This document shows positions 10,092 through 17,227 of a stretch of 17,227 nt of DNA, in pieces. The notes below the pieces were generated by a model. It had not been told where the DNA came from. It saw only the letters and a program-made list of their open reading frames with translations, and did not search any database. Location: IMG/VR virus record IMGVR_UViG_2802429237_000005, positions 1 through 17,227 of that record, one strand, 5' to 3'. Numbering within the stretch: the first letter of the stretch is position 1; each line of letters opens with the position of its first letter. The DNA comes from a virus. Its lineage: Duplodnaviria > Heunggongvirae > Uroviricota > Caudoviricetes. The position numbers and the translations under genes are program-made.

Positions 10092-10793
10092 ATGAAAGGA
10101 GTAACCCGGCAAACGGGGATTATCAGCGATATTGACGAAACCAGCGTTCGGGTGCGGGTCACGCTGCCAGAGTGTGACAATCTGAAGAGCAACTGGCTTG
10201 CGGTACTTCAACGCAATTCCCAGGACAATAAAGACTACTGGCTACCGGATATGGGCGAGCAAGTGGAAGTTCTGCTGGACGATAACGGTGAAGATGGCGT
10301 GGTGCTGGGCGCAGTTTATTCTACGGTTGACACCGCGCCAGTGGCCTCGCGCGACAAACGTTACGTCCAGTTTTCTGATGGCGCAGCGTTTGAATATGAC
10401 CGCAGCACCCACCAACTTACGATTAACGGCGGTATCGAGAAAATCGTGATTGAGGTTATCGACAGTACCCGCCTGACATCGCCCAACATTGAGATTAAAG
10501 CCCAACAGGTCAGCGTGACTTCCGATACCGTCGATGTTAAAGCGACCGATGTCAACATCGACGCCACTGAGGTCAATGTTAAAGCGGCAGCAGTGACGGT
10601 AGATGCGCCCATAAGTACCTTTACTGGTAACGTCACGGTAATGAAAAAACTCACCTGGCTTGGCGGGATGGCAGGAAGTGGAGGCATCGGTAACGCCGCC
10701 ACGATAACCGGCAATGTCAACGTGATCGGCAACGTTCAGGCCAGCGGCACATTGCAGGACAGCGGAGGCAACTCAAACCACCATTCACACTAA
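10092..10793 (+). CDS. baseplate central spike (P2 gpV-like)
   Basis: AAGGAGG Shine-Dalgarno before the ATG. N-terminal OB-fold-like region, repetitive V/T/D-rich beta-helical segment (VTSDTVDVKATDVNIDATEVNVKAAAVTVDA) and C-terminal His cluster NSNHHSH, consistent with the metal-binding apex of P2-type spikes. Confidence 0.85.
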   Translation: MKGVTRQTGIISDIDETSVRVRVTLPECDNLKSNWLAVLQRNSQDNKDYWLPDMGEQVEVLLDDNGEDGVVLGAVYSTVDTAPVASRDKRYVQFSDGAAFEYDRSTHQLTINGGIEKIVIEVIDSTRLTSPNIEIKAQQVSVTSDTVDVKATDVNIDATEVNVKAAAVTVDAPISTFTGNVTVMKKLTWLGGMAGSGGIGNAATITGNVNVIGNVQASGTLQDSGGNSNHHSH

Positions 10794-12357: not shown

Positions 12358-12982
12358 ATTGCTGCCGCCACCGCCGCTTGCCAGCGATGAGCGTTTTTCG
12401 ATTCTGGCAAATATCGCCGCCGAGCGTTTTGCCCAACTCGATCTGACGGCGTTGATGGTTTATCTGGTCGACCTGGTTGATGCTTCGGCTTTGCCTACGC
12501 TTGCAGAACAATTTCACGTTCAGGGGCTGGAAGGTTGGTTATTTACCACCGATGAGCGGGAGAAGCGCGAGTTAATTAAGCAAGCCATTGAGCTGCATAA
12601 ATATAAAGGAACAATTTGGGCGGTACGGCAGGTACTGGAAATACTCTCGCTACCCGGAACTATTTCCGAATGGTTTGAATATGGCGGGAAGGCTTATTTT
12701 TTTAAGGTTGATATAGAGCTGGTGGATAAAGGCATGGATGAAAACCTTTTCAATAATCTGGTAGAACTCATTCATGAATATAAAAACACACGTTCAAAAC
12801 TGGAAGCATTAATTGTCTGGATCATTAACCAAAGTGCTATTCCTGTTATTGGTTGTGCACTTTATGGTGGTGAACTGACGACGGTTTTACCTTTCCAGAT
12901 AAGGGAAGTACAGCAAAACACATCAATTTATTACGGAACAGGGCAATGGAGCCTTGAAATTACATCTATTTACCCGGAGTGA
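12350..12982 (+). CDS. baseplate/tail protein I (P2 gpI-like)
   Basis: ATG at 12350 with GGAG at 12340-12343 preferred over the track's TTG at 12335. Motif HKYKGTIWAVRQVLE resembles recalled P2 gpI (HCHKGTIGAIRRVVE). Confidence 0.8.
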   Translation: MDKLLPPPPLASDERFSILANIAAERFAQLDLTALMVYLVDLVDASALPTLAEQFHVQGLEGWLFTTDEREKRELIKQAIELHKYKGTIWAVRQVLEILSLPGTISEWFEYGGKAYFFKVDIELVDKGMDENLFNNLVELIHEYKNTRSKLEALIVWIINQSAIPVIGCALYGGELTTVLPFQIREVQQNTSIYYGTGQWSLEITSIYPE

Positions 12983-12984
12983 TT

Positions 12985-14466
12985 ATGGATAATGAGTTTT
13001 ATACTCTGCTCACCAGCAGGGGGATGGCAAAAATTGCCAATGCCCTTGCAAATAAAAAACAGCTTCATCTACAAAAGATGGCCATTGGAGACGGCGGTGG
13101 GCAATATTATGAACCCACCGTCAGCCAAACTAAATTACGTCACGAAGTATGGCGTGGCGATTTAAATACATTAACCGTTGCGCCCAATAATCCTAACTGG
13201 TTAATTGCGGAACTTGTACTGCCCGAAAATATCGGTGGCTGGTATGTACGTGAAGTCGGTGTTTTTGATACTGACGGTGAACTCATTGCTATCGGTAAAT
13301 TCCCTGAGTCGTATAAACCGCTATTACCCGGCGGCAGCGGTAAGCAAGTTTGCATTCGTCTTATTATGGAAGTTTCCAATACGGCAGCGGTAACACTCAC
13401 CGTTGACCCCAGTATTGTGCTGGCAACGCGCGATTACGTCGATTCGCAACTGGATGAACATGAACGTTCAACTAATCATCCTGATGCTACGTTATCGCAA
13501 AAAGGCTTTACGCAGTTGAGTAACTCCACTGACAGCGATGACGAAACCAAAGCGGCTACGCCCAAAGCGGTGAAAGCAGCGATGATTGAAGCTCGAAATC
13601 ATCGTCATACCTGGAGTCAGATTACTGATATTCCGGATGGCACGCTGGCGCAAAAAGGGATCGTGAAGCTTAATAACGCGACCAATAGTACCAGCACGAC
13701 AGAGGCGGCGACACCGAGCGCGGTCAAGGCGGCGTATGACCTGGCGAATGGTAAGGCTGCGGGAAACCATACTCACCCATGGGGGCAGATTACGGGTGTT
13801 CCAGACGGCACCCTGTCGCAAAAAGGGATTGTGACGCTTAATAACGCGACGGATAGCACCAGTACGACTGAGGCGGCGACGCCTAGTGCGGTGAAGGCGG
13901 CGTATGACTTGGCGAATGGTAAGGCTGCGGGTAGTCATACGCACCCCTGGGGGCAGATTACCAATATTCCCGACGCAACTCTTGGTAAGAAAGGAATTGT
14001 TCAGCTAAGCAGTACCGTCCCTAATACCAGTACAACAGAAGCAGCAACGCCATACTCAGTTAAGGTTGCCTATGACCTTGCGAACACTAAAGCTCCGGCA
14101 AGCCATACTCATCCATGGAATCAAATTACTGGTATCCCGGACGGTACGCTGACGCAAAAAGGGATTGTGAAGCTTAATAACACAACAAACAGCACCAGTA
14201 CAACAGAGGCGGCGACACCCAGTGCGGTGAAGGCTGCGATGGACAAAGCAAATACAGCTTTGAATAACACCACTGCATCTATATCAGATGTCAGACTGGG
14301 TGCTAAATTTGATCAGGTTATGGCAAAAGGGGGGCGCTATGAATTTCCTGGTAATGTTCTGACTGGGTTGAGAATTATCGGAGAAGTGGATGGAGATGAT
14401 CTCGCTATATTTCGCCCACTTCAGATAAAGGTTAGAGGTTCTTGGTATACGGTAGGACAACTTTAA
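12985..14466 (+). CDS. tail fiber protein (P2 gpH-like N-terminal domain, tandem-repeat shaft, conserved C-terminal domain)
   Basis: ATG at 12985 with GGAG upstream (track start is GTG at 12979). N-terminal region (...MAIGDGGG...HEVWRGDLN...IAELVLPENIGGWYVREVGVFD...YKPLLPGGSGKQ...) matches the P2 H-type fiber N-terminus. Five tandem repeats of the ATPKAVKAAxDLAN type. C-terminus GLRIIGEVDGDD...FRP. Confidence 0.9.
   Translation: MDNEFYTLLTSRGMAKIANALANKKQLHLQKMAIGDGGGQYYEPTVSQTKLRHEVWRGDLNTLTVAPNNPNWLIAELVLPENIGGWYVREVGVFDTDGELIAIGKFPESYKPLLPGGSGKQVCIRLIMEVSNTAAVTLTVDPSIVLATRDYVDSQLDEHERSTNHPDATLSQKGFTQLSNSTDSDDETKAATPKAVKAAMIEARNHRHTWSQITDIPDGTLAQKGIVKLNNATNSTSTTEAATPSAVKAAYDLANGKAAGNHTHPWGQITGVPDGTLSQKGIVTLNNATDSTSTTEAATPSAVKAAYDLANGKAAGSHTHPWGQITNIPDATLGKKGIVQLSSTVPNTSTTEAATPYSVKVAYDLANTKAPASHTHPWNQITGIPDGTLTQKGIVKLNNTTNSTSTTEAATPSAVKAAMDKANTALNNTTASISDVRLGAKFDQVMAKGGRYEFPGNVLTGLRIIGEVDGDDLAIFRPLQIKVRGSWYTVGQL
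13477..14247 (+). repeat. five in-frame tandem repeats (153-168 nt; 51-56 aa) in the tail fiber shaft
   Basis: The unit TL(S/A/T)QKGIVxLNNxTxSTSTTEAATPSAVKAAYDLANGKAAGxHTHPWxQITxIPDG recurs five times; the nucleotide period measured between CAAAAAGGGAT copies is 153, 168, 168, 168 nt. Confidence 0.85.
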
Positions 14467-15119
14467 TGGAATATAAAAATTTCACACTCTATAAACCGGC
14501 AGAAAGTATTGGTGGTATTTTTTATCTAAAATCTGATGACGATGTTGATTGGTACGAGGCACAAAAAAAATTTTCTGCCGAAACGTTAAAAATTGCTTAT
14601 GACAGCACAGGTAGAATTTGCATTGCGGATACTGATGCATCAGCGATTTGGCCAATAAATTCATCTATCAGTGAGATCTCATCTGAGAATGTTCCTGATG
14701 ATTTTTCAACAAATGGGAAATGGTTCTGGAATGGCGAAACGATAATCAATGCTGTAACAATCGTAACTGCTAAAAAAAATAAAATGGAGGATATCAAAAA
14801 TCGACGAGATGAAATAACGGCAGACTACATCATCATCAACGACCATCACTTCCACAGTGATACCAGCAGCCGAATCCAACAGATCTCGCTCACTAAAATG
14901 GGTAAGGAGAAACAAATTCCGCCAGGTTTAATGTGGAAAACTAAAAATAACGGTCTGATTGAGTTAACCAACGAAATCGCCGCGCAGTTTGAATCCGTCA
15001 CCATGGATCACGATATGCGCTTATTCGCCAACGCCCAACGTCATATCGCGGCGGTGGAAGCTCTGGACGATATTCAGGCGGTGCTCGATTACGATTACTC
15101 CACAGGCTGGCAACCATGA
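14466..15119 (+). CDS. tail fiber assembly protein (P2 gpG-like chaperone)
   Basis: ATG at 14466 overlaps the fiber stop (TAATG); the track start at 14442 lies inside the fiber gene. Pattern DWYEAQKKFSAETLKIAYDSTGRICI resembles recalled P2 gpG ([26 protein letters not shown]). AT-rich N-terminal part is typical of exchangeable fiber/chaperone cassettes. Confidence 0.8.
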   Translation: MEYKNFTLYKPAESIGGIFYLKSDDDVDWYEAQKKFSAETLKIAYDSTGRICIADTDASAIWPINSSISEISSENVPDDFSTNGKWFWNGETIINAVTIVTAKKNKMEDIKNRRDEITADYIIINDHHFHSDTSSRIQQISLTKMGKEKQIPPGLMWKTKNNGLIELTNEIAAQFESVTMDHDMRLFANAQRHIAAVEALDDIQAVLDYDYSTGWQP

Positions 15120-15571
15120 GTAAAACCACTGTCTGGCTCGCTTGTTATAAGGGCCGAACAGAGCACCGCGGTATTGCCCGACTGGCTGACTGGCTTACCC
15201 GTAAGATCACACGCGGTAGTTATTCCCACTGTGAATTAGCCGTTAAGCATGGTGAAAAGAGTTACCTTTGTTACTCCGCATCCCTACGCGATCGCGGCGT
15301 ACGCGGAAAGATAATGCCATTACCGCCAGATAAGTGGGATATGCTGCCACTTAACTCCAGCCTTCAGGACGTTGAAGCTTTTTTCCATAAACATGATGGC
15401 AAAAAATATGACTGGCGCGGCGCGCTTGGAATTATCACCGGCAATAAAGAACAGCGCGATCGCCTGTTTTGCAGTGAATTTTGTGCTGAATTCCTGCAAT
15501 TAAAAGATAGTTGGCGATACTCACCAAATCACCTGTATGCCTTAGTAAGTAACTGGCAATCCCATCCGTAA
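15116..15571 (+). CDS. hypothetical 151-aa protein, last gene of the tail operon; tentative permuted papain-fold (NlpC/P60 / LRAT / YiiX-like) signature
   Basis: ATGA start/stop overlap with the assembly-protein gene implies translational coupling. N-terminal His motif (TEHRGIA) and C-terminal Cys motif (LFCSEFCAEF) about 100 residues apart, an order and spacing reminiscent of LRAT/YiiX-type enzymes. The fold assignment is a motif-level guess. Confidence 0.6.
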   Translation: MSKTTVWLACYKGRTEHRGIARLADWLTRKITRGSYSHCELAVKHGEKSYLCYSASLRDRGVRGKIMPLPPDKWDMLPLNSSLQDVEAFFHKHDGKKYDWRGALGIITGNKEQRDRLFCSEFCAEFLQLKDSWRYSPNHLYALVSNWQSHP

Positions 15572-16084: not shown

Positions 16085-17227
16085 ATGGTTGATAAAATAA
16101 TTTTCACTGTTACGCCAATTTTTTCCATTCCTCCACGTTGCGCTGCTGCTGTAGAAACCTGGATTTATCAGGTTGCTATGATGACAAGAATACCGAATAG
16201 AATTGTTTGTATAAAAGAAGAAGGTTATTCTGATACCACCACTGTCAGTGAACGATGCTCAATTCATCGCATCGGATTCAGTCGAATTTATAAACGCATA
16301 TTTCAGAAATTGACGCGTATAGATCCCCTACCTTACTCTCAACGAATTTTGAATGTCGCTAACGATTTCAATATTACGGATAACAGTGTAATCATTGTAC
16401 ATAATAGCATGAAGTTATATCGTCAGATTCATGAGCGTTCACCTCAGGCAAAAATAGTAATGCATATGCATAACGCTTATGAGCCAAAAGGAATGGATGC
16501 CGATGTCAAAATGATCGTCCCCAGCAACTATTTAAAAAACTATTATCAGGGGTTCCTTCCTGATGCAGACATCGCTATAGTTCCAAATGGCACAGATCCA
16601 TATAATACAGATAAGCACCATGCCAAAATCAACAGATCTGATCTGAACATATCCCCTGACAAGAAGATTATATTTTATGCGGGAAGAATATCTCCTGAAA
16701 AAGGGTTGATGTTACTTCTGCAAGCGTTTGAACTACTCATCAGAACCCATGATGATATAGAACTGGTTGTTATCGGAGATTATGCGAGCAAAAGTAAGGG
16801 TGAAAAAGGAATTTACCAACAGAAAATTCGAGAATTAGCAAAACAACTAGGTTCACACTGCCATATGTTAGGAGGTGTCGCTCCTGAGGAAATGTATCGC
16901 TATTATTCTCTGGCTGATTTAGTTGTTATTCCATCTCAATTTCAGGAGCCATTTTGTATGGTGGCAATAGAAGCGATGAGTGCAGGTAAACCTGTACTGG
17001 TGAGTACTCGAGGTGGAATGATAGAATTTGTAAAAGATAAAGATACCGGCTATCACCTGCAAGAGCCGATGACACCCGAAACAATTGCTGTAGATATAGA
17101 AAAAACACTTAACAATTCTGATTTACTTAGTGTTGCCCATCACGGAAAACAATTTGTCATGGAAAATTATTTATGGTGGCAAGTCACTCACAAGTTTGAA
17201 ACTGTAATTAGCAATTGGTTTGATTGA
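16085..17227 (+). CDS. GT4-family (GT-B fold, retaining) glycosyltransferase
   Basis: 380-aa ORF with AAGGA Shine-Dalgarno upstream. C-terminal domain motifs typical of GT4 enzymes: GRISPEKG, VIPSQFQEPFCMVAIEAMSAGKPVLVS with the E-x7-E signature (EPFCMVAIE). Markedly AT-rich codon usage compared with the tail genes (by eye). Confidence 0.85.
   Translation: MVDKIIFTVTPIFSIPPRCAAAVETWIYQVAMMTRIPNRIVCIKEEGYSDTTTVSERCSIHRIGFSRIYKRIFQKLTRIDPLPYSQRILNVANDFNITDNSVIIVHNSMKLYRQIHERSPQAKIVMHMHNAYEPKGMDADVKMIVPSNYLKNYYQGFLPDADIAIVPNGTDPYNTDKHHAKINRSDLNISPDKKIIFYAGRISPEKGLMLLLQAFELLIRTHDDIELVVIGDYASKSKGEKGIYQQKIRELAKQLGSHCHMLGGVAPEEMYRYYSLADLVVIPSQFQEPFCMVAIEAMSAGKPVLVSTRGGMIEFVKDKDTGYHLQEPMTPETIAVDIEKTLNNSDLLSVAHHGKQFVMENYLWWQVTHKFETVISNWFD

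Follow-up and report, generated by a model that had tools for sequence, protein, structure and literature searches.

Every internal junction between the PF03406 repeats of a P2-type phage tail fibre carries the motif HxHxW. Judging from the junction sequences of relatives, this periodic motif is under strong purifying selection, and it represents an optional connector of 12 residues inserted between PF03406 modules. By likeness to known HxH sites, the connector probably binds metal. The PF03406 repeats and the protein are already catalogued; what had not been described, as far as found, is that HxHxW recurs periodically in a connector that forms a discrete module and is optional. The open literature searched contained no description of HxHxW, HTHPW or metal in PF03406 fibres, which is weak evidence, most subscription journals lying outside of it.

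The fibre gene and its neighbourhood

The window (the whole stretch of DNA analysed, 17,227 nucleotides) contains a contractile-tail/baseplate module with genes for sheath, tube, tape measure and the gpD-like and gpV-like hub/spike proteins. Baseplate_J and Tail_P2_I genes lie upstream of the fibre gene and a DUF4376/Caudo_TAP assembly gene lies downstream of it, the order at the locus being J, I, fibre, tfa. Translation of the fibre gene (nt 12985-14466, plus strand) gives a protein of 493 aa (plus stop), which in a database search was 100% identical to P0001, "MULTISPECIES: tail fiber protein [Escherichia]", and which at least 24 contigs carry in the same gene neighbourhood. A search of complete E. 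coli RefSeq genomes at ≥90% identity did not recover the window; the protein occurs in other Escherichia assemblies. Residues 1-150 match PF12571 ("phage tail-collar fibre protein, N-terminal") over its entire length (E 2e-61, profile positions 1-150 of 150), tblastn against a phage collection returned P2 gpH, Wphi gpH and many Peduovirus fibres, and the C-terminal ∼60 residues align to the Mu S tip (aa 435-502; PDB 5YVQ). Both the N-terminal domain and the position of the gene, after J and I and before the assembly gene, correspond to those of P2 gpH, and the C-terminal tip shares homology with those of gpH and Mu S. Because of the database identity, the matches to P2 and Wphi gpH and the Mu/P2-like tip, the protein is an ordinary P2 gpH family member from a P2-type prophage and had been annotated before. 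From homology with its relatives, we infer that it is a homotrimer. The features of the gene and of its immediate downstream neighbour are as follows.

12985-14466, plus strand: tail-fibre gene of the P2 gpH type (translation, PF12571 and PF03406, gene order)
12985-13434, plus strand: N-terminal baseplate-attachment domain, aa 1-150 (PF12571 Phage_tail_fib)
13480-13599, plus strand: PF03406 repeat 1, aa 166-205 (best Pfam stretch aa 169-206; AATP core at aa 190)
13600-13632, plus strand: connector 1, aa 206-216, HRHTW-S-QITDI (motif position)
13633-13767, plus strand: PF03406 repeat 2, aa 217-261 (Pfam, core; 86% nucleotide identity to repeat 3)
13768-13800, plus strand: connector 2, aa 262-272, HTHPW-G-QITGV (motif position)
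13801-13935, plus strand: PF03406 repeat 3, aa 273-317 (Pfam, core)
13936-13968, plus strand: connector 3, aa 318-328, HTHPW-G-QITNI (motif position; mosaic switch at about 13885-13945)
13969-14103, plus strand: PF03406 repeat 4, aa 329-373, which diverges most among the five units (matches repeat 4 of P0002 almost exactly)
14104-14136, plus strand: connector 4, aa 374-384, HTHPW-N-QITGI (motif position)
14137-14253, plus strand: PF03406 repeat 5, aa 385-423, with no HxH after it (Pfam, core)
14272-14463, plus strand: C-terminal tip, aa 430-493 (alignment with Mu S; visible likeness to the end of P2 gpH)
14466-15119, plus strand: tail-fibre assembly gene, 217 aa (DUF4376, E 2e-13; weak Caudo_TAP; PHROG 136, tail fiber assembly)

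P2 gpH (NP_046775) shares with the fibre of the window the PF12571 N-terminal domain, PF03406 repeats that begin at the same position (HPDA(S/T)L...) and a closely similar C-terminal tip of ∼60 aa; the J-I-H-G order of P2, with an assembly gene downstream, is likewise the same. In contrast, P2 gpH has only two repeats, 44 aa apart and connected by a His-free joint (GKYTAQDATT), and about 370 additional residues between repeats and tip. The fibre of the window is unusually minimal, consisting of the gpH N-terminal domain, five repeats and a 65-aa tip without this ∼370-aa middle part, and candidates for its receptor-binding surface are the tip or the attached assembly protein. The only significant PDB sequence match to the protein was Mu gpS (PDB 5YVQ and 9KI1; Mu S/S′ chimera 8JU3), which also contains a PF03406 repeat (aa 108-153) and a related tip (aa 435-502) and binds an assembly protein, but differs in having a single repeat not followed by HxH and another N-terminus.

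The start codon of the assembly gene overlaps the stop codon of the fibre gene (TAATG), and its product combines a weak N-terminal Caudo_TAP match with a C-terminal DUF4376 domain. In three related loci (L003, L005 and L007), the assembly gene is followed by the 151-aa ORF found here at 15116-15571 (plus strand), which gave a hit to PHROG 1128 ("enoyl-CoA hydratase/carnithine racemase-like", moron category) and had no Pfam or NCBIfam match. Between this ORF and the RlaP gene lies a gene for a group-1 (GT4) glycosyltransferase (16085-17227, plus strand; also PF20706, "GT4-conflict"), which is missing from the otherwise similar locus of P0071 (L007); its absence there suggests that it is an inserted accessory gene. 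Upstream, the central spike protein (10092-10793, plus strand; TIGR01644 phage_P2_V/PF04717) ends in ...NSNHHSH, placing an HxH at its extreme C-terminus. As this parallels the apex of P2 gpV (LHTHKHPGD), a known Fe site, the spike encoded in the window may also bear an iron-binding tip.

Five PF03406 repeats form the shaft

PF03406 (Phage_fiber_2, "phage tail fibre repeat") matched five stretches of the protein, with 258.9 bits compared with a cut-off of 22. The shaft that they make up is encoded at 13477-14247. The AATP cores of the repeats are located at aa 190, 241, 297, 353 and 409, corresponding to a spacing of 51, 56, 56 and 56 residues, and they lie in tandem in a phage tail-fibre protein encoded inside a tail/baseplate cluster, in keeping with membership in this family. 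At the DNA level, Tandem Repeats Finder (TRF) detected a period of 168 nt at 13618-14238 (3.7 copies, 72% matches), and a repeat search found four copies at 168-nt spacing. Pairwise nucleotide identity among the units ranged from 54 to 86%, and the longest exact run in register was 22 nt. A match to PF12789 (PTR, "phage tail repeat like") at aa 311-336, which is connector 3, remained below the gathering score (25.9 bits compared with a cut-off of 27) and was graded "faint" in precomputed matches. An antisense ORF across the repeats (13492-13944, minus strand; 150 aa, Arg-rich and repetitive) is most likely a by-product of the repeats and was rejected as a gene.

The HxHxW motif recurs at all four internal junctions

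HRHTW was found at aa 206 (nt 13600-13614) and HTHPW at aa 262, 318 and 374 (beginning at nt 13768, 13936 and 14104). Each motif is directly followed by x-QIT-x-(I/V)-PD, and all four internal junctions of the shaft are covered; the consensus of the connector is (S/N)-H-(T)-H-x-W-x-Q-I-T-x-(V/I)-P. All His and Trp residues of the shaft are inside HxHxW motifs; in the whole protein, 8 of 12 His and 4 of 8 Trp residues lie in these motifs. Thus, two claims of an earlier, sequence-only reading were borne out, namely that the centre of the fibre is made of five tandem repeats of 51-56 aa and that HRHTW or HTHPW precedes QIT at four repeat junctions, these being all the internal ones, with a period of 56 aa (168 nt); its description of the 168-nt units as near-identical does not hold for this gene, given the nucleotide identities above.

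When the protein was shuffled 100,000 times, one HxHxW arose in 0.44% of the shuffled sequences and more than one in none. Since the repeat copies are homologous to each other, conservation rather than chance is the fair test of the motif. The codons for the second His at the four junctions are CAT, CAC, CAC and CAT, and this use of both synonymous codons points to selection on the protein.

The motif is conserved in a discrete class of junctions

In 120 close homologs, junctions were located via the repeat cores and, therefore, independently of the motif. HxHxW was present in 103 of 105 distinct inter-core segments from this sample, part of which consists of close relatives, and the other two contained QxHxW. 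The exchange of Gln for the first His (QTHTW) was found at junction 1 in some Salmonella homologs, which form one lineage.

A more distant survey, in which a two-unit query (aa 212-323) was compared with 1.84 billion representative proteins, yielded 2,274 proteins at E ≤ 0.001. Spacing classes of the junctions were counted in the best 150 of these 2,274 (representatives clustered at 50%); the cores were found by a regular expression, so that some may be missed or mis-spaced. The main classes in these best 150 were the following.

44-aa spacing: 76 distinct junctions; HxH in 0 of 76, and no His at all in 73 of 76
53-aa spacing: 18 distinct junctions; 13 with HxH but without Trp (KANxxHxHxxxDLP)
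56-aa spacing: 31 distinct junctions; 26 with HxHxW

Junctions with HxHxW also occurred among the rarer spacings of 51 and 61 aa in the same best 150. Because the spacing falls into discrete classes, with or without the motif, the connector is optional; and because most PF03406 junctions elsewhere lack His, it is dispensable for a PF03406 shaft as such. The His-free junctions, together with the natural Gln variant, show that a staple is not essential for shafts of this kind.

In a connector-centred alignment, units that were 32-78% identical to those of the window had two His, the Trp, one Gly and one Ala as their only invariant residues, and in units of 32-47% identity the two His and the Trp were the sole invariant residues of the linker. 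As the sequences of this alignment were chosen by the motif itself, the counts at core-located junctions are considered the primary evidence. The residues between the invariant ones vary and are partly charged (T, I, N, A, K, S or R at the position between the two His; A, P, T, V, S, K, G, D or R at that between His and Trp). Such an alternation of invariant and variable residues, ending in Trp, fits a β-strand with one buried face, which in a thin trimeric fibre would be the axial face.

HxHxW is shared by fibres of different hosts whose N- and C-terminal domains are unrelated. In P0205, a distant fibre from the representative library, residues 506-545 run from 11-residue HxH repeats (HTHSEYALTT, HNHDAAYASIT, HNHAGTYANLT) through an HSHAW connector into PF03406 repeats, an arrangement that links the connector to denser HxH arrays.

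Metal binding is the preferred reading of the connector

In T4 gp37, T4 gp12, P2 gpV and R-pyocin fibres, each of the three chains contributes HxH to the binding of Fe or Zn on the threefold axis (PMC6116203). The sites are octahedral and occupied by Fe in T4 gp37, in the spikes of P2 (gpV), phi92 and R2 pyocin and in the fibre shaft of R1 and R2 pyocins, whereas T4 gp12 contains Zn; the authors of the pyocin structures suggest that HxH sites are registration points in folding and tune stiffness (PMC6116203). The precedents on which the sequence-only reading had drawn (T4 gp37, T4 gp12 and P2 gpV) are thus accurate according to the same source. The (S/N)-H-T-H context of the connector resembles that of proven Fe sites (NHSHT, GHTHS and AHTHT in gp37; LHTHKH in P2 gpV).

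By this analogy, H-x-H-x-W would form a β-strand with His, His and Trp facing the threefold axis. Six His residues, two per chain, would provide an octahedral site for one Fe(II) or Zn(II), beside which a layer of three Trp residues would be packed, and the fibre would contain four such sites, one per 56 residues. The sites would keep the chains of the trimer aligned while they fold with the help of the chaperone and would stiffen the joints between modules.

Of the features that define the HxH metal-site class, a conserved His-x-His is present (four motifs, and nearly all core-located junctions of the close homologs), and homology to a solved site was not detected, as no PDB chain spans the connector in phmmer and profile searches. 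Membership of the connector in this class rests on two of its five defining features, that is, the motif and its conservation. The only homologous structures found by PDB sequence and profile searches, Mu gpS and AP22 gp53 (PDB 4MTM), both lack the connector. In the latter, a fibre fragment of Acinetobacter phage AP22, residues 25-73 match the repeat of P0166, a divergent HxHxW fibre (E 5e-5); it differs in that the repeat is followed by KFNFQNSKN and not by a His connector. Structure prediction with AlphaFold2 as a monomer gave an unusable model for the full-length fibre (33 homologs; mean pLDDT 40) and five models for a fragment with two junctions (pLDDT 71, 60, 47, 46 and 43). Confidence in these monomer models is low or uneven; in the best of the fragment models, N/S-H-T-H-P lies in a strand, which is a weak hint. 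Fold searches with the full-length model and the best fragment model returned no match. The many PDB matches to Fab heavy chains were discarded, as they reflect a chance likeness of the J-CH1 junction to the connector region; the resemblance concerns WGQITGVPDGTLSQKGIVTLNNATDSTSTTEAA (13768-13900 of the window, aa 262-305) and could mislead automated annotation.

T4 gp37 (PDB 2XGF) and the C-terminus of lambda Stf are trimeric, their axial HxH motifs bind Fe(II), and a small residue precedes H-(S/T)-H as it does in the connector. They contain, however, seven or eight HxH motifs 9-14 residues apart in one continuous β "needle", without Trp at +4, without an intervening PF03406 module and without detectable similarity to the connector; the single PF03406 repeat of lambda Stf has no HxHxW connector. 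Membership in the gp37-type needles was, therefore, rejected, as the motifs of the window are spaced by 56 aa with a full PF03406 module between them and no gp37 chain was matched. The fibres of R1 and R2 pyocins also belong to P2/Mu-like contractile tails, and a single buried Fe(II) is held in their shaft by three copies of HxH (PMC6116203). They differ from the fibre of the window in having one site instead of a periodic series and in the unrelated fold and sequence of the shaft; no PDB sequence match to them was obtained. The fuller proposition is that the connector is a distinct, structurally uncharacterized metal joint, a 12-residue plug-in element that provides one axial Fe/Zn site per 56-aa unit, makes the number of staples scale with copy number and marks the sites of cutting and rejoining; we consider the chances of this being right and wrong to be evenly balanced.

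A joint without metal, in which the His and Trp rings stack or form hydrogen bonds in the core of the trimer and thereby act as a "plug" between modules, would also fit the signs of burial, as the invariant Trp and the alternating pattern do not in themselves indicate a metal. It would also accommodate the Gln at one junction of the Salmonella lineage, where the gene is not evidently lost, and the commonness of fibres with His-free junctions. Nevertheless, such an ion-free joint is unlikely, because the HxH sites of the listed solved trimeric fibres and spikes (T4 gp37, gp12, P2 gpV, phi92, pyocins) hold Fe or Zn (PMC6116203), and because two His at i and i+2 are invariant down to 32% identity, although Gln, Asn or Tyr would usually be tolerated in mere packing. 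Even less probable is a surface-exposed role of the His residues in pH sensing, in contacting a receptor or LPS-bound cations, or in binding the assembly chaperone, with no axial metal involved. These His residues are the least variable of the unit, unlike surface-exposed determinants of host range, which as a rule vary; HxHxW is shared by fibres whose terminal domains are unrelated and whose hosts differ; and an invariant Trp that lies on the same face points to burial. What speaks for exposure is that the fibre has no obvious separate receptor-binding domain, the ∼370-aa middle of P2 gpH being absent, and that the orientation of the side chains is not fixed by any measurement here.

The junctions are sites of recombination

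Close homologs contain three to seven repeats, and the number of HxHxW motifs is usually one below that of the repeats. The genes for P0002 (498 aa) and P0006 (442 aa) align with 0 mismatches over 1,329 nt, except that one 168-nt unit is missing from the latter. The junction copies involved share an identical run of 36 nt that encodes YDLANSKAATSH and has the first His codon at its end; identity between the two units concerned is 94%. In an E. albertii homolog, the units are 98% identical (94% over 3.6 copies according to TRF). The P0002/P0006 deletion and the E. albertii units document unequal crossing-over between units in this fibre family, by which the number of repeats is altered. The suggestion that repeat number varies by recombination thus stands for the family, in which copy number at homologous loci, as had been proposed for comparison, ranges from 3 to 7 and a clean 168-nt deletion has occurred; the units in the window have diverged, making this locus a less active substrate than had been implied.

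The fibre gene of the window is itself a mosaic, as revealed by DNA identity profiles against loci L005 and L007 together with protein alignments. From nt 12685 to 13885, the window is 83-100% identical to the locus of P0071 (a 589-aa E. coli fibre), and from nt 13945 to 14724 it is 93-98% identical to that of P0002; the distal part of the gene stems from a P0002-like parent and the rest is P0071-like. The switch at 13885-13945 coincides with the third junction. A second one lies within the assembly gene, at about 14725-14785, and up to about nt 14725 the assembly gene has the same parent as the distal fibre. The positions of the two switches indicate that a single cassette was exchanged, comprising repeats 4 and 5, the tip and the N-terminal ∼90 residues of the assembly protein. 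A crossover at a junction, therefore, exchanges the distal fibre and, along with it, the beginning of the assembly-protein gene, and the conserved DNA of helix and connector doubles as recombination homology.

It is highly improbable that the motif owes its conservation mainly to the DNA, serving as a recombination linker by which fibre modules are shuffled and contributing nothing specific to the protein. Both the mosaic switch and the one-unit P0002/P0006 deletion map to the helix/His junction, but the His codons differ synonymously among junctions while the intervening codons vary, H, H and W persist in proteins that are just 37-45% identical and in which DNA homology is gone, and the 36-nt identical run of the deletion case mostly encodes the helix and not the motif.

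Implications

As both PF03406 repeats and metal-binding HxH sites were established before, the current understanding of fibres remains unchanged. If the connector does bind metal, a simple modular rule would follow according to which one repeat equals one metal site. The repeat to which it would extend is one for which 1.84 billion representative proteins yielded 2,274 matches at E ≤ 0.001. Metal staples would then increase in number with the repeats, from two to seven in relatives with four in the fibre described here, and, given six fibres as in P2, a virion would contain about 24 ions. Such a rule would help in designing tail and tailocin fibres of a desired length and stiffness and in picking safe splice points for host-range swaps, the junctions being, as this analysis demonstrates, natural sites of crossover.
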